IMG/VR virus record: IMGVR_UViG_2770939580_000003
Span: 1 to 41,061 of that record
Reading direction: 5' to 3' (one strand)
Length of the DNA stretch: 41,061 bases
From: a virus
Taxonomy: Duplodnaviria > Heunggongvirae > Uroviricota > Caudoviricetes
A program made the translations under genes and the position numbers. Under the pieces are notes generated by a model. It was not told the DNA's origin, searched no databases, and worked only from the letters and a program-made list of their open reading frames with translations. Every line of letters starts with the position of its first letter. Positions within the stretch are counted from its first letter, which is position 1. This document shows positions 1,271-39,573 of the stretch, in pieces.

Positions 1271-1834
1271 TTAAAGCGCTTCGTATTTAATGCGAATCCC
1301 CTTCCATATTTGTGATATCCTCGCCTTGGATACCCCCATCAATGCTGCAATTTCTACAAATTCATACCCTGACGTTCGAAGTTTAAAAATCTCTTTCTCA
1401 CGTTCATTCATGCCCATATTTTCCATGATATCGGTAAGAAATTCGAAGTTCTCATAAGCAAATCCGGTATGCCCCAACACCAGAGCCATATCTCCCCCAT
1501 CACCTTCATCTCCACCATGATCCGTGGTTATAATCTGTGCCGCATTCACCACACTAAGGTTTTTCTCAGATGTACATTTACGATACATATCCTTGATTTT
1601 ATTATCAATTAAGTGATCTACAAAGGTTGACATTTTGGCTTTATCAGCATCGTACTTCTCTAACGAATGAACCAGTTTGATCAAAATTTCTTGAGTAACA
1701 TCCTCTTTCTCCATTCCAGCGAACGTTTTCCCTCGCAGCTTGTGACGACATTTCTCCTGTGCTTTGTTCAGGAACATATCAATATCCCCTATTTCAAATA
1801 AAGCATCAAACCCCATAGCAGTTGTAGCTGACAT
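1271..1834 (-). CDS. sigma-70 family RNA polymerase sigma factor (ECF/SigH-like, regions 2 and 4 only)
   Basis: region 2 EDVTQEILIKLVHSLEKYDADKAKMSTFVDHLIDNKIKD; region 4 HTH MNEREKEIFKLRTSGYEFVEIAALMGVSKARISQI; GGAGG RBS. Confidence 0.9.
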   Translation of the reverse strand: MSATTAMGFDALFEIGDIDMFLNKAQEKCRHKLRGKTFAGMEKEDVTQEILIKLVHSLEKYDADKAKMSTFVDHLIDNKIKDMYRKCTSEKNLSVVNAAQIITTDHGGDEGDGGDMALVLGHTGFAYENFEFLTDIMENMGMNEREKEIFKLRTSGYEFVEIAALMGVSKARISQIWKGIRIKYEAL

Positions 1835-25671: not shown

Positions 25672-26088
25672 TTATATACGATGTACATTTGTACCAGTTA
25701 AGCGTCCTTCGTCATCATAATTCAGAGCAATATTATAGGTAAACATGGCTTCTCCTTCTGCATCAAACGTTCGGGCCGTTACCTGGGTTAAACGGTAGTA
25801 CCTGTAATATTCATAATCTGGATGGTCATAGCCTACACTTGAAGGAAAATCATCCTCGTCTTCTGACCCGAATTGGAGCCAGATGGATACCTTCCATTGG
25901 GATTCATAGATAAGATCTGCCCCAGTGACACGGTCCGGGTCCTTTATATGTTCTCGATACAAGGTTACAGAAGGCTCGCCTTCCAGCGGTGAAACGCTAG
26001 ATGAATTTGTACTGCTGAATTTTCGAAGCTCTCGGTGAATCAAATCCAGCACGGGAAATACGATATTTTCGTTGACAATGCCCGCCAT
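25672..26088 (-). CDS. hypothetical tail protein with terminal YD-like hairpin
   Basis: 138 aa; overlaps the hub gene stop by 1 nt; ends LNYDDEGRLTG. Confidence 0.7.
   Translation of the reverse strand: MAGIVNENIVFPVLDLIHRELRKFSSTNSSSVSPLEGEPSVTLYREHIKDPDRVTGADLIYESQWKVSIWLQFGSEDEDDFPSSVGYDHPDYEYYRYYRLTQVTARTFDAEGEAMFTYNIALNYDDEGRLTGTNVHRI
25675..25701 (-). promoter_or_regulatory. ECF-type promoter motif TTAAC-N16-CGTATA
   Basis: TTAAC TGGTACAAATGTACAT CGTATA in the last codons of the upstream gene, just before the next RBS. Confidence 0.72.
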
Positions 26089-29000
26089 TACACCATCACT
26101 CCCTTTCTAGCCCACATCAAATCAATAACTTGAAGCATGCCACGATCCACCGTAAATGTGGTCTTGATACTCTTAATCGTATAAATGGCTCGTGTCGTCG
26201 TTGTTTTATCTGTCACGATGACATTATCCAGCAGATCAAGCGCCGGATTGGCAGGTATGGATACCTGCAATGTACGGCACATACGCTTCATATCAAAAAA
26301 AGCTCGCTCCGCCACTTGTCTTTTGGCTTCTACCGTTTTCGCCCACGGCACATTAAGCACCATAGTTCGAATTTCCCCTTTGAGCTCCAGCAGAATCTCC
26401 TTGTCTACAAAGCTGCTCTGTCCCTGATTTGCATCTACAACGACAATGTGACTCCGCCCTCTGGACCAATCGGTTGATTTGGTAATGGAAATCAGATTGT
26501 CATATTCAGAAAATTCGGCAACAACAGGTTTGTCGTAATTCAACCGTTCCAGGCGATAGGTTCCATAACGATCACAGTAACTGCGATAAGGAATTTCCGA
26601 GATCACTTCTTGCACCGCTTCTGTCACTTTGGTGGACCATTGTTCAAATGTTCTCCCATATTCCTCAGTGAACGGATTTAACCACCCGTTTGGAGTCAGA
26701 ATGGTGCTTGCATCCTTCACTTCAAATTCGCCTTCCTGACCAGGTACAGGAACAATAACCCTGCCTGTTTTCTGGTTCACCTCGATCAGGTACGTCTCAT
26801 CAATAACATAATCGGGATAAGAACGATCTTCACTGGTTGCTCTCCAGCCCACCAGACCTGCATGCTTGATGAGATCAAGCACAACCGTTGACTTCACCCA
26901 GGCTACCTTCTCAAATTCAACAGGCTGGGAAGCTGCAGGCGCAGCACTTGCAGCAGTAGGAGCTGTGATAGTCCAGCTTCCCGGGTCTGCCAGCATCTCC
27001 TGATAATACATCCACACTTTATCCACCCAGTTCGTCTCATCCTCACTCCAAACCATAGGCGCGATATCTCCACCCCTGTGGAAATAAAGGACATCCGCCT
27101 TGGAGGTTACTTTTTTGCCCTTGGATGCCAGAGCTCTGGACATGCGTTCTGCACCACGTTTCATCTGCTCCTGAATGCCACTATACTTCTTGTCAGGGAT
27201 GCCATATCCGAGAATGAAACCGCCACTAGCTTCTCTGCCTCTGCCCTGCGTACCCATGACCGTCTCGTGTCTGCAGATGGCCAGCAGGAACTTGTGATCC
27301 GGGACACCGTAAGCTGCAGCTTGTACTTGTGCGGCTTGAATGATGGTTGAAGTCCTGTCCGTCTGAACAGCCGATGCCGGAACCGGATCGGGAACGTTAT
27401 CTATATCATCAACTTCAGGATAAGCCTTCTTCTCTGAAATGACTTTTTCAATAACTCGTTTGTACATATCCCTCGCCGTAATCTCAAGTGTGGAATCCTC
27501 ACCATTAATATCTACCTTATCAATCAATCCTGTAAAAACACGCATCATATGTTGACCATATCCCATATAGATGCGTATCGGTGTATTCTCACTCAGGACA
27601 CCTACATGAAAACCATTGGCAAAATACGACCAGGGTGAAGGTGTTCCTTCTAGTTCGGGAAAATAAGCTGGATTGTAATCCGGGGAAAAGTAACCTCTAG
27701 GATTGGAAATTGTCAGTCTTGCTTCCCTTGCTTCAGCATCAAAAACATCATCAATCTCCGCTGCAATAATATTAGGAAGCACCTGAGTATCCATATAAAC
27801 AAAAGATCCAACCTGGATTACATCCGTTTCCTGCCGGTTATTCATCACAAAGCTCTCATAGCTGTTCGTCTGATAATAACCTTCAGATGGGTCGAGTCCT
27901 TCCTCCGCCTTCTGATTTTTTAAAGGAGCTGGAAGCAGTTCCTGGATGCGAATATAGTCGATGGCAAGCTTCTTGAATTTATTGTTCGTCTTGCCTGCTG
28001 AACCCGATGAAGCAGCCGAATTGACTTTCCCGCCGTAGGTCACTTTAACCTGGATACGTTTGGACTTGGCTGGAATCACAATGTTTTTTAATTCCGTAAG
28101 TTTCGTCAGATCATAATCTCCGGAAAATGAGTTTATGTACGCATACGTCTTTCCATCAATGACTATCGTAAAAGAGTCACCTTCTGATCCACTAAAATTA
28201 GTACCTAATCCAATACTAAGCAGCCCTAATGTAGGCATGCTAAGCTTGGTAACATCGATCTCAAACTCTACCACTACCGCTTCTCCGCCAAATGTATACA
28301 GCAGCTTGCCACCAGAATCGGCCAAAGTCCAGCCGGATTCAATCTTGGCGTAATCGCCAAACTTCAGTCCAGTCTTGTACACACCCTTCTCGTACCAGTT
28401 GCGTTTGTCAAACTTCTCATTCAGCTTGATCTCTCCAGGATAGCCTCCAACATCTACTGGTCTAACGTCACGAAATGTGGTCTCTGCATTACCGTGTAAT
28501 TTTCGCTTGCCTTCCAGATACAGCTTGGGATTAACCGCCTTCCCGCCTTCTCCGGTTTTGGTCGTTGGATTAACCCCCTCCCATATTTCAAAATGTAGAT
28601 GTCGTCCTCGGCCAGCTGCTCGCTCAGCAGCAGAAACTTTATGCCCATTCGTATAGACACCGCCTGTATTGCCAAGCGTTCCAATAACGTCGCCTTGTGC
28701 TACTTCATCATCTACTGAACAAAGAATATCCTTGAGATGAAAATATTTTGTAATAATGCCACCAGCATGCCTTATATTCACGGCATTTCCCGCGCCCTCT
28801 GTCTTGCTTCTAGTTATTCGTACAACTTTGCCTGACCATGCAGACAAGATTGGAGTCCCTATCTCATCCCATAGATCAATTCCTCGGTGTGACCGACCAT
28901 TCGATCTGGCAGCACCGAATTTATCTGTAACTTTAATCGTATTTATCGTCTTGCCCTTTACCGGAAAACAAATGTCCTGCGCGTTTACTTTTGTTGAACC

Positions 29001-29210
29001 GTTATATATACCGTTCGCCGTTTCATCTACCCATACGGATTGTGTATTCATGACCGGGACTGCTTCGGAAACTATATGTCTGAACTCCTCGGTTCGTCCC
29101 GGAATAAAAGCCAGCCTGTCCACTTCGACCCGAATGTTGGGAAGAGCATATTCACCGAGCTTTAATCGCTCAGATAGCACACGTAGAACTTCATCTGAAA
29201 TTGGAATCAT
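26088..29210 (-). CDS. baseplate hub / tail-associated lysin (Tal-like) with M23 peptidase and lysozyme-like domains
   Basis: M23 motifs HRGID and HLHFEI; hub motifs ARLTISNP..IRIYMGY..VFTGLIDKV..LEITARD and YRSYCDRYG..TLQVSIPANPALD; inserted LLAICRHET module. Confidence 0.85.
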   Translation of the reverse strand: MIPISDEVLRVLSERLKLGEYALPNIRVEVDRLAFIPGRTEEFRHIVSEAVPVMNTQSVWVDETANGIYNGSTKVNAQDICFPVKGKTINTIKVTDKFGAARSNGRSHRGIDLWDEIGTPILSAWSGKVVRITRSKTEGAGNAVNIRHAGGIITKYFHLKDILCSVDDEVAQGDVIGTLGNTGGVYTNGHKVSAAERAAGRGRHLHFEIWEGVNPTTKTGEGGKAVNPKLYLEGKRKLHGNAETTFRDVRPVDVGGYPGEIKLNEKFDKRNWYEKGVYKTGLKFGDYAKIESGWTLADSGGKLLYTFGGEAVVVEFEIDVTKLSMPTLGLLSIGLGTNFSGSEGDSFTIVIDGKTYAYINSFSGDYDLTKLTELKNIVIPAKSKRIQVKVTYGGKVNSAASSGSAGKTNNKFKKLAIDYIRIQELLPAPLKNQKAEEGLDPSEGYYQTNSYESFVMNNRQETDVIQVGSFVYMDTQVLPNIIAAEIDDVFDAEAREARLTISNPRGYFSPDYNPAYFPELEGTPSPWSYFANGFHVGVLSENTPIRIYMGYGQHMMRVFTGLIDKVDINGEDSTLEITARDMYKRVIEKVISEKKAYPEVDDIDNVPDPVPASAVQTDRTSTIIQAAQVQAAAYGVPDHKFLLAICRHETVMGTQGRGREASGGFILGYGIPDKKYSGIQEQMKRGAERMSRALASKGKKVTSKADVLYFHRGGDIAPMVWSEDETNWVDKVWMYYQEMLADPGSWTITAPTAASAAPAASQPVEFEKVAWVKSTVVLDLIKHAGLVGWRATSEDRSYPDYVIDETYLIEVNQKTGRVIVPVPGQEGEFEVKDASTILTPNGWLNPFTEEYGRTFEQWSTKVTEAVQEVISEIPYRSYCDRYGTYRLERLNYDKPVVAEFSEYDNLISITKSTDWSRGRSHIVVVDANQGQSSFVDKEILLELKGEIRTMVLNVPWAKTVEAKRQVAERAFFDMKRMCRTLQVSIPANPALDLLDNVIVTDKTTTTRAIYTIKSIKTTFTVDRGMLQVIDLMWARKGVMV

Positions 29211-29225
29211 ATGCACTCGCCTCCT

Positions 29226-30629
29226 CTACTTGAATCGTTCAATCGTCCATTTTATGAAGCGGTCCAGAAAAGCTGCAGCCTCGGCACGGGTCATCGCTGA
29301 ATTACCCAAAAACCAAATTTCTTCGGGATCAATCCCGTTTACAGGCCGCCCCATATCGGTCACAACTGCCGCACCATCTAACTTTTTTTTCACGGGAATG
29401 CCCATAATCAGTGGATCATTGTTGGAGAATGTCTCATCCTCCATTTCGGACACAGCTACCTTCCAGAAGGAATCCTTGGTCTGCTCAACACGTTCACCCT
29501 TGTTTTGATAATATATAGCAGACTCCTTACCGACATCCGCAAATCTTTCACTTACACCTTTCTCATAAAAGAAATGAACCTCATCGCCTTCCGATAAAGG
29601 GCCATTAAACACAACCGTATGATTATCAATCTCGGTGTAACCTGGAACTGTATCTTTTTTGTTTTTCAACTCCACATCCACTTTTAGCTTCTTCGCCCCA
29701 TACGGGTAATTCCCATTCAACCTGAAGACTCGTTGGCCTTGAAAAGCTGTAATTTTCTGATCGACACCCTTCGTAGGTGCTTCCATATCTGTGAATCGGG
29801 CATAAAACACTTTTCGCAATTTATTTATCAGATGGAATGCTTCTCCACGCTGAATGATTGCATTGGGAAAAAAACAATTGTTGTAGGATGGGTTGTCTGA
29901 TTTTGCCTTAATATCCTCACTCTTGAATTTAAAAGCCCCGCCGCTCGTTTTGGTCCAATAATTAAACTTGCATGTAACACCATTGAGATTAAAAGGCAGA
30001 AACACCGAGCCTCCCGGGCTTACACAATATACATCTGTACGATACCCGATCGCCTTGGTGGCTATCTTGGTTACTGCCGCTGCATCTCCCATGCTATCCG
30101 CCCATATTTCAGAAGGAATACTGAGTCTGCGAAGAGGCTGTCCACCTGCATACATATACTCCTGATGACTCCGGCTAAAAGGATCATAGAAGTATGTTGT
30201 TGCAGCACCCAAAATAGCTCTCGGCAAACTACCAGTCCAGGAAACAGGCGGCCTTTTCCATTTTTCATCTAGCAGTGGTTCTCCATAGCTGCAAAATGAC
30301 ACAACCTGGCCTGCTTTTACACCTGTGTATAACTCAATATCCGTTAAATTTTTGTTGTTCTTCTCTGCTGATTTATAGATCGTCTGCACACCATCAATGA
30401 AAACATATAACGGATTATCATCAGTCGGCTCAATCAGAACCGGTAAACTAAACGAAGTTTGTCCCGATGTTGCCTTAATCTCTTCGTAAACAAAAGGCTT
30501 TCCCTCCTTAAACTTGTTGTAATTAATCCCGGCCACAAACACTTCACCATCTTCGAGCACCATATTGGTTGCTTCCATCACGTCGTTATAGAACCAGTCG
30601 CCTTCATTGACATCCACCCATTTACGCAT
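29226..30629 (-). CDS. tail-associated protein with two interrupted SLH motifs
   Basis: start ATG 30629; WVDVNEGDWFY ... FFPNAIIQRGEA; FADVG..FWK..V ... GNSAMTRAEAAAFLDRF; inserted GQTSF/VFIDG tail-type modules. Confidence 0.75.
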   Translation of the reverse strand: MRKWVDVNEGDWFYNDVMEATNMVLEDGEVFVAGINYNKFKEGKPFVYEEIKATSGQTSFSLPVLIEPTDDNPLYVFIDGVQTIYKSAEKNNKNLTDIELYTGVKAGQVVSFCSYGEPLLDEKWKRPPVSWTGSLPRAILGAATTYFYDPFSRSHQEYMYAGGQPLRRLSIPSEIWADSMGDAAAVTKIATKAIGYRTDVYCVSPGGSVFLPFNLNGVTCKFNYWTKTSGGAFKFKSEDIKAKSDNPSYNNCFFPNAIIQRGEAFHLINKLRKVFYARFTDMEAPTKGVDQKITAFQGQRVFRLNGNYPYGAKKLKVDVELKNKKDTVPGYTEIDNHTVVFNGPLSEGDEVHFFYEKGVSERFADVGKESAIYYQNKGERVEQTKDSFWKVAVSEMEDETFSNNDPLIMGIPVKKKLDGAAVVTDMGRPVNGIDPEEIWFLGNSAMTRAEAAAFLDRFIKWTIERFK

Positions 30630-30660
30630 GACATACACCTCCTGTATTTAGAATAGACAG

Positions 30661-30685
30661 AAAAAAGAGTAGGTTACCCTACTCT
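30661..30685 (-). terminator. intrinsic terminator (GNRA loop) between the two SLH genes
   Basis: AGAGTAGG-GTAA-CCTACTCT-TTTTT overlapping the stop codon at 30679. Confidence 0.8.
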
Positions 30686-31329
30686 CGAATTGTTCGTTCT
30701 AACAGACGTTTGGTGCGCATCAGAAACGTAACAAATTCTGCTCTGGTAATGTAATCCTCCGGACGGAAGTACAAAATTGGCGTGCCGTCTAATTGCGTAA
30801 CCACGGTCAAACCCAGATCACCCAAACGTTCAATGGAATTTCTGGCCCAATGATCTTTACCTTCTGTCGTCTGCAAATCCTGAAACTGCACCTTACTTTT
30901 GCGGTCATATCCATCCTTTTTGATGAGTGTCATGGTCAATTCGACCTTATATCCCTTTTGATCCTTGTCCATCGTATCCTGATGATAGAAGATCGGATCA
31001 ACCTTAATGGACTCGACCACGCCCACATAGATATTTCCTTTTTCATCATAAAATTTATGTGTCCAACCCACGTACATCACATAATCGTGATAAGACTTTT
31101 TGTCTCGGAACAGTACATTAATAATTGCTTTATAAGAAGACACACCCATCTGATGAAAATGAGAAGGAGCATTAATCATTTTAATCTCTCTTACCTGAGG
31201 ATTGGGTGAAGGGGATGAATATGGATCAATGATCCGCCCCTCCACGGGCTCAAATTTCATGCCCGTATCTACAAAGAGTGCTCTTTTGTATCGGTCATTC
31301 ACTAGACCAAACGGGTCTCGTTGAGGCAT
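30679..31329 (-). CDS. distal-tail (Dit)-position protein with C-terminal SLH domain
   Basis: directly after the TMP; FQDL...HWARNSIERL..LG...FRPEDYITRAEFVTFL is a clear SLH motif; the Dit role is inferred from synteny. Confidence 0.75.
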   Translation of the reverse strand: MPQRDPFGLVNDRYKRALFVDTGMKFEPVEGRIIDPYSSPSPNPQVREIKMINAPSHFHQMGVSSYKAIINVLFRDKKSYHDYVMYVGWTHKFYDEKGNIYVGVVESIKVDPIFYHQDTMDKDQKGYKVELTMTLIKKDGYDRKSKVQFQDLQTTEGKDHWARNSIERLGDLGLTVVTQLDGTPILYFRPEDYITRAEFVTFLMRTKRLLERTIRE

Positions 31330-37218: not shown

Positions 37219-37857
37219 TTACATCAGAGGGACAGGTCTATTCGGTAATTGATCAATAATGCCCGCAATTTGTTCCGCACGCTCGCGTAGTTCATATTCC
37301 TCAGCAGTTATCAGGTGAATATGTGAACAATATCGACCATGCTCGTAGATTCGCTCCGGCGTTATGAAGACCACATCCGCAATAGCTTCCATCGCATGCT
37401 TTTGCTTTTCATACTGATCCGGATCAGTCAACGAATCATAAACGACAAGATCCGGATACGCCGCCTCCACCGAGCTAGTTAATCGACTATCGTTTACCCA
37501 ATATACAATGCGATTCTGGCCAAATAAGGCGCGTACATTCTGACCTGCCCGGGCAACGACAAAATGCGGGAGAAGGGAGTATGGGTACTCCAGATCATCA
37601 ACCTGATAATATTCATCATTCGAGTTAATATAGATAATGTTATATCCGATTTCAGCAAGTGCCTTTAACAACCTCTGCGGACGTTTTGCAAATCGTTCAC
37701 TATGAAAATCAATGGCTGGCAAATAAACAATGGTTGTATTCTTATAAGGCACATATGATTGGGAAAAATCATATTCCTGCTCAATAAATTGTTGTTGTAC
37801 CTCCTCCATTGCAGCAGTTTCCCTTGTGCCAAACAATCGTCTAAACATTTTTTTCAT
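37219..37857 (-). CDS. glycosyltransferase N-terminal-domain-only protein (half GT-B)
   Basis: TIVYLPAIDF..RPQRLLKAL..IVYW...VVYDSLTD aligns with the N-domain of the adjacent GT; the C-domain is missing. Confidence 0.65.
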   Translation of the reverse strand: MKKMFRRLFGTRETAAMEEVQQQFIEQEYDFSQSYVPYKNTTIVYLPAIDFHSERFAKRPQRLLKALAEIGYNIIYINSNDEYYQVDDLEYPYSLLPHFVVARAGQNVRALFGQNRIVYWVNDSRLTSSVEAAYPDLVVYDSLTDPDQYEKQKHAMEAIADVVFITPERIYEHGRYCSHIHLITAEEYELRERAEQIAGIIDQLPNRPVPLM

Positions 37858-38936
37858 CGTCCATTATCCCCCATCACCTGATTAATCTTCTTTATTGCAT
37901 CCATCGCTCTGGCATCCCAACTATTGGCTCTGGCGACCTGTGTGCGGGCCCTGATTTTGGAGGTATCATTCTCATTAATTGCTTTCTCCAGCATCTTGCC
38001 GCAATTGTACCGATCCATAAAATAAGTCACATGAGCATATTTATGTACAATCTCTTCCATGCGGGTGGTCAGAACAGGTTTACCCGCTGCTAAATACTCG
38101 TAGTATTTGATCGGATCACATCCACGAATCATCTCTGTAAGCTTGAAGGGCACGATGCACACATCAAATTGAGCAATATATGCAGGCAGCACCCTGTAAT
38201 CCTTATGTGGTAAACATGTAACATTGGGATGCAGAATTCTTTTTTGATACAACGCATTGTTACCAATTAGAACTACCTGATAACCGAGATCTGCAATTTG
38301 AGTAATAAGTGAATAATCGACCCAGGAAGCCATCGCTCCGTGGAACCCCACCACTCGTTTTCCTTCAGGTATTTTAGGAAAATCTGAAGGTCGAGTAAGC
38401 GTGGTCTGCGCTTTCTCAAAGTGTTCATAATCCGCACCATTCGGACACATAAAGATTGGCTTTCCTTCCTTTTGATGTGCTTCATACATAATCCTTGCGG
38501 TAGTTGAGATCAGGTCCGCCCGTTCAAAACATTTAGGGATATACTCCTTCCAAACGGCAAATTCATCTGCTGAATTATCTAAATAATCAAAAACGGTAAA
38601 ATCGAATTGCTTTCCATCCGCATAGTCATATTGTGCAGGGCTAGAAAACCAGAGTACCTTCTTCCCTTTGATCAAATGATCATAATGGATTCCCCGTCTC
38701 ACAAGAAACAAATCCTCATTTAGCTTCTCAATTGGACGCTCCTGAGCACGATACGTTTCCGGATTAATGAAAATTGCTCTTACACCAGGAATTCTGGAGA
38801 ATGCCGTCATTAATTGTTGCGGACGCTGAAATAACAGATTCCAATCCAGGGCTGGGGGATAAATTATGGTCATTTCAATACTTTGGAATACCTGATCCGC
38901 TTTTGCTTTCTTCTTAGGACGCAGCCAATTCAGCAA
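37854..38936 (-). CDS. GT-B glycosyltransferase (GT4-like)
   Basis: start moved to TTG 38936 (AAGGAG RBS); PNGADYEHF, FDVCIVPF, PIKYYEYLAAGKPVL, NSWDARA motifs. Confidence 0.88.
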   Translation of the reverse strand: MLNWLRPKKKAKADQVFQSIEMTIIYPPALDWNLLFQRPQQLMTAFSRIPGVRAIFINPETYRAQERPIEKLNEDLFLVRRGIHYDHLIKGKKVLWFSSPAQYDYADGKQFDFTVFDYLDNSADEFAVWKEYIPKCFERADLISTTARIMYEAHQKEGKPIFMCPNGADYEHFEKAQTTLTRPSDFPKIPEGKRVVGFHGAMASWVDYSLITQIADLGYQVVLIGNNALYQKRILHPNVTCLPHKDYRVLPAYIAQFDVCIVPFKLTEMIRGCDPIKYYEYLAAGKPVLTTRMEEIVHKYAHVTYFMDRYNCGKMLEKAINENDTSKIRARTQVARANSWDARAMDAIKKINQVMGDNGR

Positions 38937-39573
38937 CGAGCTCAACTCCTTCCGCGTAGACATGCACAGGCCGTAATCCCGTGTCCACAAACAGATCAAA
39001 ACCAAGTGCTCTGGCATGCTCACAGAACGCTGCATCCTCACCTGAAGTATGTTCGGCATATCGAACCCCGGCTGCAATAACCTCACGTTTGATCAGATAC
39101 ACCGCACCTGTCCAATCTACCGGGATCACACCTTTACTGAATTCCGGAACATGTCGTCCTTGAATAAGTGCATTATGTGCTTTGATCTGCGGATGATTTC
39201 GAATCAACATGGCACAGATATGCTTGTCGTTATTGATGAGTTGCTGCAGGCTATGTGGTGGAATTACGATGTCTGTATCTACAGAGAACAAGTACTCACA
39301 GTCAGACTTTAGAAACTCTTCCAATAACCGATTTCTAAGCTTTGCCAGATGCGCGTAGGAATATTGTCCCCGCAAGTGTCCATGGGCTGTTCCCATATCA
39401 TGAGATACATAAGGGATATGATGATTCTGCAGGATGATTTCAGTCTGATCCTCACTATCGTTCAGAATATATTTGAATTGTTTCTGAACCGCCTGTTGAT
39501 GTAGGGAGTGCAGATGCCTTTCGAGCACCCAAGCACGATTTCTCACAGGACTGCCAATGAATACGTTATTCAC
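38914..39573 (-). CDS. GT-A glycosyltransferase (GT2-like)
   Basis: IGSPVRN, ILNDSED, LRNRLL, YLFSVDTD (DxD), WTGAVYLI, GED motifs. Confidence 0.85.
   Translation of the reverse strand: MNNVFIGSPVRNRAWVLERHLHSLHQQAVQKQFKYILNDSEDQTEIILQNHHIPYVSHDMGTAHGHLRGQYSYAHLAKLRNRLLEEFLKSDCEYLFSVDTDIVIPPHSLQQLINNDKHICAMLIRNHPQIKAHNALIQGRHVPEFSKGVIPVDWTGAVYLIKREVIAAGVRYAEHTSGEDAAFCEHARALGFDLFVDTGLRPVHVYAEGVELVAELAAS

Follow-up and report, generated by a model that had tools for sequence, protein, structure and literature searches.

The S-layer homology (SLH) motif is a unit that works in sets of three, by which bacteria attach surface proteins to their cell wall, and SLH domains are a standard means of wall anchoring in Gram-positive and many diderm bacteria. 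The SLH domains described so far are built either from three tandem motifs in one chain or from three identical chains. Here we describe SLH motifs divided between two adjacent tail-tip genes of a phage-derived element in a Paenibacillus chromosome. The DNA analysed (the window, meaning the whole stretch of 41,061 nucleotides) is IMG/VR record IMGVR_UViG_2770939580_000003, positions 1 to 41,061, classified in the Caudoviricetes. The first of the two genes encodes p216, a protein at the Dit position with one SLH motif; the second encodes p470, a tail-tip protein with two SLH motifs, both split by inserts. We hypothesize that the two proteins together make up a single SLH domain. If so, such a domain could be built in a third manner, by a conserved 2+1 split over two different tail-tip proteins, and here a phage tail would clearly have put the wall-anchor fold of its host to use for adsorption.

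The genes of the region all lie on the minus strand, in the order of a 277-residue tube-like protein, a chaperone-like pair, the tape measure protein, p216, p470 and the M23 hub p1042 (Table 1). The p216 gene begins 34 nucleotides beyond the stop codon of the tape measure gene and, because that gene sits directly before it, is the gene at the Dit position; its place just after the tape measure is the same in the Brevibacillus phage Jenst and in 29 scored genome loci. In Jenst (Jenstvirus; likewise SecTim467 and Bacillus phage EZ-2018a) the order gp156-gp155-gp154-gp153 corresponds to tape measure, one-SLH Dit-like protein, two-SLH protein and M23 hub, as here, and the C-terminus of our tape measure protein has weak similarity to the Jenst tape measure protein. 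The two differ in that Jenst, a siphovirus of 126 kb, has head genes, whereas the element described here is headless.

Table 1. Features of the tail-tip region and the lysis genes. Unprefixed coordinates are window positions; those prefixed L084 lie in the right flank, beyond the window.
Feature	Coordinates	Strand	Content or basis
Tape measure protein, 1273 aa	31363-35184	minus	Size; place after chaperone-like pair
p216	30679-31329	minus	Dit ring domain and one C-terminal SLH motif
p216 residues 8-143, tail-tube/Dit N-terminal ring fold	30901-31308	minus	VIA-align, Foldseek
p216 residues ~147-216, one complete SLH motif	30682-30891	minus	F-x-D, HW, G...DG-x-P, F-x-P, ITRAEF, long core helix
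p470	29226-30638	minus	Tail-tip protein; two split SLH motifs and two phage-fibre-type beta-sandwiches
SLH-A N-half, p470 residues 5-40	30519-30626	minus	W-V-D-V...D-W-F...G-I; HMM residues 9-26 = model positions 7-24
SLH-A insert, ~210-215 aa (about residue 40 to 253)	29889-30512	minus	Beta-sandwich 43-120 and putative second mixed domain 121-250
SLH-A C-half, residues 253-283	29790-29882	minus	FFP-x-x-I-[TQ]-R-[AG]-E and core helix; HMM residues 255-273 = model positions 34-52
Second beta-sandwich, residues 289-360, between SLH-A and SLH-B	29559-29774	minus	VIA-align; absent from short forms, e.g. Jenst gp154
SLH-B, residues 364-470, split by two short inserts	29229-29549	minus	HMM residues 364-377 and 443-462
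p1042, hub/Tal-like, 1042 aa, M23 peptidase	26088-29216	minus	Peptidase_M23 4e-21; C-terminus matches phrog_36429 and phrog_1887 'tail protein'
Amidase_2 endolysin	L084:709-1497	co-oriented with tail operon	
Phage_holin_4_1 holin	L084:1494-1919	co-oriented with tail operon	

SLH motifs of p216 and p470

p216 has 216 residues, matches phrog_32188 and is 33% identical to Jenst gp155. VIA-align places its N-terminal region with the Dit proteins of lactococcal phage p2 (2wzp_P, Z 8.0 over 106 residues at a root-mean-square deviation (rmsd) of 3.5), 80alpha (Z 7.0), SPP1 (2x8k_A, Z 6.5) and TP901-1 (Z 6.2), and with the tail-tip or baseplate chains of Douge (8zdo_m, Z 7.7), Bxb1 (9d93_Ma, Z 7.6) and the monocin tip (Z 6.9), with lambda gpM also among the matches; Foldseek gives probabilities of 0.98-1.0 to tube and tip proteins including lambda gpV and the monocin tip. 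Of the features of a Dit, p216 has the N-terminal ring domain of the tail-tube fold; in place of the C-terminal galectin-like domain it has, past residue 143, just the 70-residue SLH motif. p216 is a minimal Dit, in which a single SLH motif replaces the usual outer galectin-like (lectin-like) domain. The evolved Dits of siphophages infecting lactic acid bacteria (PMC7291167, PMC10688798, PMC7533335) carry modules that bind host-wall glycans and aid adsorption; there a whole carbohydrate-binding module lies inside the C-terminal galectin-like domain, so p216, with no such domain and with one-third of a binding domain that would need a second protein, falls outside that class.

Two profiles were used for the motifs, the Pfam SLH family (PF00395; PROSITE PS51272) and a hidden Markov model (HMM) built from 52 SLH motifs of the host's own proteins (the host-SLH HMM). 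Pfam matches p216 over residues 160-199 with 17.4 bits, under the gathering cut-off of 20.8, and finds 25 of 29 family members at E<0.01; the host-SLH HMM scores p216 at 25.6 bits, a value that none of 2000 shuffles attained (best 7.8). All 29 aligned homologues have G173, G182, F188, P190 and R196, 28 have T195 and 23 have W161; the ITRAEF signature occupies residues 194-199. In a monomer model the motif has a predicted local distance difference test (pLDDT) score of only about 45-65. Most of the 46 homologues of p216 are named as SLH proteins, and an SLH motif at the Dit position appears in many NCBI records; the Jenst paper is silent on SLH, which for that phage is mentioned solely in the RefSeq label of gp155, 'S-layer homology domain-containing protein'.

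p470 is listed with 470 residues from a GTG start, but its true start is probably the ATG at 30629 (467 residues), because the homologue P0047 and the ESM Atlas record both begin at residue 4. It matches phrog_29574, and its 39 homologues are mostly called hypothetical. Pfam SLH gives no match to p470 at E<1 and finds just three of 37 family members at E<0.01. The host-SLH HMM, by contrast, aligns to four pieces of p470, an N-half at residues 9-26, a C-half at 255-273, an N-half at 364-377 and a C-half at 443-462, for a total of 20.0 bits, with none of 2000 shuffles as high (best 4.1). Elsewhere in the module the host-SLH HMM gave three large proteins scores of -0.3 or less and matched none of the remaining proteins; nor was there a significant host-SLH HMM match in the p1042 hub or its orthologues in relatives. 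A possible third motif in p470 was rejected: a weak N-half-like W...IG pattern at residues 176-197 is followed by no TRAE half, and just two-thirds of an SLH domain aligns.

The family alignment (37 sequences) agrees with this division into halves. Its consensus begins W-V-D-V..D-W-F-Y...G-I, resumes after about 215 inserted residues with N-R-F-F-P-N-A-x-I-T-R-A-E-A, and ends R-F-x-D-V-G ... W-W ... L-I-x-G ... F-M-P-x-T-x-L-T-R-A-E-A. In the first motif (SLH-A) D9 and W15 of the N-half and F256, F257, P258, R264 and E266 of the C-half are invariant, and the AlphaFold2 model places helices at residues 17-24 and 264-282. The second motif (SLH-B) follows the pattern F-x-D-V, aromatic-W, L-I-x-G and F-x-x-x-x-x-M-T-R-A-E-A with a terminal core helix, and D368, G413 and R451 are invariant. 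In short-form relatives of 345-367 residues SLH-B is contiguous and scores 26-37 bits, which fixes its identity in p470 by homology. Jenst gp154 is such a short form: it has 347 residues, lacks the second beta-sandwich and is 30% identical to p470 residues 3-298, whereas p470 is long and its SLH-B is split. The inserts hide the motifs from Pfam, and so the p470 family is still hypothetical almost everywhere despite its two SLH motifs. The cryptic pair in p470 is the unannotated part of the system; the motif on the Dit-position protein is already annotated.

The claims of an earlier sequence-only reading of this DNA were borne out at this level. It had described one complete ITRAEF motif on the Dit-position protein, for which we find 25.6 bits and the ring fold, and two insert-split motifs on the next protein, which the half-motif order N-C-N-C and the comparison with shuffles bear out; the interruption of the first of these by some 215 residues of tail-type beta structure proved right in size, with a fibre-type beta-sandwich at residues 43-120.

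The AlphaFold2 model of p470 (mean pLDDT 88.7, predicted template modelling score 0.76) brings the four half-motifs together. Aligned by VIA-align to 48,161 PDB representatives, it overlays three independent SLH structures with modest scores: SpaA of Paenibacillus alvei (6cwc_A, chain residues 28-137, 110 residues, Z 4.9, rmsd 2.5), Sap of Bacillus anthracis (6bt4_A, 90-209, 117 residues, Z 4.9, rmsd 3.5) and 6qvm_A (98-192, 91 residues, Z 4.8, rmsd 3.6). Each alignment draws on discontinuous residues between 2 and 467 and covers two adjacent motifs of three. The model thus has the p470 motifs folding together as two-thirds of an SLH domain, with fibre-type beta-sandwiches inserted in the loops. 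SpaA (6CWC) and Sap (3PYW/6BT4) share the signature and, judging by the p470 model, probably the core three-helix bundle in which helix-loop-helix units pack into a 'three-pronged spindle'; they differ in having three tandem motifs in one chain, where here one and two motifs are spread over two proteins, two of the motifs are interrupted by domains of 20 to 215 residues, and binding is a prediction.

Other searches were less informative. Profile searches with both families against PDB sequences returned nothing significant, Foldseek with the whole p470 model gave multi-domain noise only, the SLH match emerging only with VIA-align over all representatives, and an ESM Atlas feature search of p470 stayed in the noise range (scores of 0.76 or less), with one listed cluster carrying SLH.

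For the insert at residues 43-120, VIA-align matched phage tail-fibre and tailspike domains of the N-terminal or docking type (9efk_AE, Z 7.9; CBA120 TSP4, 7rfv_A, Z 7.4); for residues 289-360 it matched T7-like tail fibres in their N-terminal domains (8ck1_B, Z 6.7; 7boz_a, Z 5.3). Both sandwiches (window 30279-30512 and 29559-29774) resemble the N-terminal docking domains of T7-like podovirus fibres and the XD domains of CBA120 TSP4, and copies of the 289-360 module, often several to a protein, occur in hundreds of long fibre-like proteins of the representative library.

Both proteins end in a core-helix pattern after TRAE, F-L-N-R-[TF]-R-[RK]-..-E-R-.. (window 30682-30744 in p216 and 29229-29288 in p470), which is longer than in canonical SLH motifs. 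The shared extension points to common ancestry and to an elongated bundle formed jointly.

The 1+2 count and the ligand signature among relatives

Eighty loci were retrieved with the p216 profile; 30 of them encode full-length relatives, in hosts of Paenibacillus, Brevibacillus, Aneurinibacillus, Bacillus, Anaerovirgula and Desulfocucumis, and 29 could be scored. In all 29, as in phage Jenst, the Dit carries one motif and the next tail protein two (a split motif and a terminal one), the two-motif protein being the next but one in a single locus. This 1+2 arrangement spans hosts from Paenibacillus to the class Clostridia at about 30% sequence identity, and the M23 hub has an SLH motif in none of the 29 loci. 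An exhaustive profile search for the p470 family gave 65 representative clusters at E<1e-30. Most show both motifs, one being eroded in some divergent lineages, and no full-length member of these clusters showed a third, whatever the size of its inserts (345 to 723 residues in all). In two divergent metagenomic lineages in which SLH-B has lost its arginine, the Dit motif still has R-A-E.

In SpaA every binding groove draws on all three motifs, one contributing Arg43, the next Gly29 and the third Trp13, and the arginine holds the pyruvate (PMC6081394). Counterparts of these signature residues (Trp13, the Gly29 of GIIxG and the Arg43 of TRAE) are present in all three motifs of p216 and p470. The arginines R196, R264 and R451 are invariant in the aligned sequences; the glycines are conserved as G182 (29/29), G413 (37/37) and G37 (30/37); and the tryptophan position is held by W15 (37/37), W161 (23/29) and a W, F or Y at position 391 in SLH-B. 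The sequence-only reading had inferred that the two proteins, or their ring oligomers, assemble a functional SLH trefoil. That interpretation is supported in part: the HMM and shuffle scores, which make the motifs real SLH units by sequence, the meeting of the four half-motifs in the p470 model, the 1+2 count kept in deeply diverged relatives and these conserved ligand residues all fit a trefoil of both proteins.

The hosts were examined for SLH-type anchoring. SLH motif hits number 86 in the host genome, where a single PS_pyruv_trans (CsaB-like) gene lies among SLH genes, and four of five other host genomes are rich in SLH, with 25-48 matches each. The fifth is Bacillus pumilus GM3FR (L031, 6001-7699), whose sole SLH match is the Dit of the element itself; there the p470-like protein has lysine for both arginines (SKGE and TKAE) with its helices kept, and the Dit keeps SRAQ. 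In this host, which lacks SLH-type anchoring, the ligand may have changed or been lost, and the exception is consistent with selection, linked to the ligand, that keeps the arginines in SLH-type hosts. We read these alignments to mean that the helix-bundle joint is what stays constant, the pyruvate-binding signature persisting in hosts with an SLH-type wall.

A proposed two-chain SLH domain and its alternatives

On balance we think it probable that p216 and p470 form one SLH domain out of two chains. The lone motif of the Dit would supply the missing third helix pair to the two motifs of p470, so that each Dit-p470 pair would make one complete three-motif domain on the rim of the tail tip, with up to six such domains per hexameric Dit ring. 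The low pLDDT of the p216 motif alone is as expected of a piece that needs partners. Precedent for an SLH domain of several chains comes from the OmpM/SlpA-type stalked porins: in OmpM the domain is assembled from three chains with one motif each (PMC10628300). OmpM is, however, a homotrimer with three identical grooves, while what is proposed here is a 2+1 heteromer on a six-fold ring.

That this domain has two jobs we regard as an even call. It would fasten p470 and its cargo to the Dit ring, and in its grooves, to which each of the three motifs has to contribute residues, it would bind the pyruvylated secondary cell-wall polysaccharide (SCWP) on Paenibacillus and Brevibacillus walls. The anchored tip would then be held on the wall while p1042, the M23 and lysozyme-like hub, cuts peptidoglycan, and target specificity would come from the large downstream fibre proteins, not from the generic SLH anchor. 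The receptor hypothesis that follows is pyruvylated SCWP made through csaB, and it would concern a large, little studied set of Jenst-like phages, phage-plasmids and headless chromosomal derivatives in Paenibacillus, Brevibacillus and relatives. More speculatively, and in our estimate improbably, the SLH domains of the tip could compete with the S-layer anchors of the target for pyruvylated SCWP, locally loosening the S-layer and fastening the tip to the wall so that the hub reaches peptidoglycan; the anchoring device of the host would then have been copied, split over two proteins and made active only after tip assembly.

Several observations weigh against the proposed domain or its binding role. 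The case for a joint domain consists of motif counting and a monomer model, and a Z of 4.9 is modest and, taken alone, could mirror a common helical arrangement. SLH-A of p470 itself reads IIQRGE, not ITRAE. A fused Dit-p470 protein was not found in a search for longer forms, which was a weak search. The 1+2 arrangement persists in the B. pumilus element although that host has no other SLH match, and in some metagenomic lineages SLH-B has lost its arginine with the core helix kept, which makes the helix bundle more conserved than the binding signature. Conservation, moreover, cannot separate a ligand role from a structural one, because the TRAE motif is also required for folding of the SLH trimer (PMC6081394).

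The B. pumilus element, the lineages without the SLH-B arginine and the role of TRAE in folding also favour the strongest rival, in which the two-chain three-helix bundle is a structural joint that docks p470 on the Dit ring and binds no wall polymer. The most conserved feature is the long core helix ...LNR[FT]R[RK]..ER.. that ends both proteins, and the inserted beta-sandwiches of p470, with their likeness to fibre-docking domains, suit an adaptor protein. Against a purely structural role, every sequence from an SLH-rich host has equivalents of Trp13, Gly29 and Arg43 in all three motifs, where real S-layer anchors rarely keep all sets (SpaA itself has TVEE and TRAQ; PMC6081394), and the arginines turned to lysine in the one B. 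pumilus relative aligned, whose genome has no other SLH match. We consider a purely structural joint of this kind rather unlikely.

A less probable explanation, and a doubtful one, is that the motifs serve separate assemblies: three neighbouring Dit motifs would form OmpM-like homotrimers, two per hexamer, the p470 pair would act alone or between copies, and the 1+2 count would be a coincidence of ancestry. The OmpM precedent allows this, Dit rings provide three-fold-related neighbours, and the AlphaFold2 model of the two p470 motifs is confident with no third motif present. Two motifs per chain, however, cannot close a three-fold domain unless a third partner joins, and in the model one position of the trefoil is empty, the alignments covering 110-117 of about 165 residues. 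That empty position and the strict pairing of one motif with two across about 30% identity, never 3+0 or 1+3, are what complementation of p216 and p470 predicts, without amounting to proof. Finally, retention of new tail particles on the wall or S-layer of the producer, before or after lysis, is very improbable: the producer wall is of the SLH type and the element looks domesticated and headless, but the 1+2 count also occurs in the free siphovirus Jenst and on phage-like contigs of ~110-120 kb, where the obvious use is adsorption to a target, particles assemble in the cytoplasm, away from wall polymer, and the motifs sit at the tail tip beside wall-cutting enzymes. The tether to the producer's wall that the sequence-only reading had offered as one option finds nothing in the analysis to support it in particular.

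The same reading had remarked that SLH at the Dit position was not known from described tailocins. As far as the position goes, it was already annotated in a siphovirus, in gp155 of Jenst; in the open-access literature we found no paper with such an arrangement of SLH units in phage tail tips, tailocins or receptor-binding proteins.

The headless element and its surroundings

Beyond the hub p1042 lie smaller structural proteins and two giant fibre-like proteins. Family searches, including Pfam and PHROG, revealed no head-type family (capsid, portal or terminase) among any open reading frame of the window; the generic 'virion structural protein' PHROGs that were matched there are counterparts of Jenst genes downstream of the tail tip. 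The major head protein of Jenst and the adjacent head-module genes that were tested have no homologue anywhere in the host genome, and of the Jenst genes tested only the tail genes do. On the left the window is flanked by host DNA with resB, resC, a histidine kinase and dacB.

On the right, the amidase and holin (L084:709-1919, that is G000:C2:228351-229561) lie 0.7-1.9 kb past the window end; they are syntenic with the tail module in relatives without the adjacent prophage and form the element's own lysis cassette. Beyond them a serine integrase with Resolvase, Recombinase and Zn_ribbon_recom domains (from L084:2524) opens an SPbeta-like prophage, which also has a DnaE-like polymerase (L084:2467-4011 and beyond; G000:C2 from ~230.1 kb). 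We considered that the window might be part of this large prophage and rejected the idea: three related Paenibacillus chromosomes match up to L084:2467, sharing the tail module and having the amidase and holin at equal distance from the Dit gene, and lack the integrase. By this comparison the prophage is an insertion adjoining the tail element and separate from it. Since the relatives match only as far as L084:2467, the tail module is an independent element of ~43 kb in the Paenibacillus chromosome, headless and sheathless, with its own lysis genes. Across the P. amylolyticus group it is conserved at a single chromosomal locus, p216 being 91-96% identical.

What is new here is this chromosomal module of ~43 kb, which lacks a head, brings a holin and an amidase of its own and is distinct from the adjacent prophage. 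F-type tailocins such as the Listeria monocin likewise combine, within the chromosome, a headless siphovirus-type tail cluster with their own lysis genes, and the Dit-like fold matches the monocin tip (9j1k); the element, known here from genes alone, shares with them tail genes unaccompanied by capsid, portal and terminase, and plausibly is an F-type tailocin derived from a Jenst-like phage. Some relatives are on contigs of ~100-120 kb, one of them labelled a plasmid, and look like complete phages or phage-plasmids; the occurrence of the 1+2 device in these indicates that it is older than domestication.

Other genes in and around the window may be mentioned. At the distal end of the tail operon (window 1271-1834) there is a gene for a small sigma-70-family factor of the extracytoplasmic function (ECF)-like kind, a candidate regulator of the element itself. 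Two glycosyltransferases encoded upstream of the tube gene (window 37854-39573) have 28%-identical paralogues at G000:C2:354501-356214, beside the tube gene of the neighbouring large prophage, and no paralogues of the tail proteins occur in the host genome. The left host flank (L083:4165-7848; G000:C2:170746-174429) encodes a 1227-residue protein with collagen repeats, two CBM_5_12 domains and a BclA C-terminal domain, which resembles an exosporium-filament protein.

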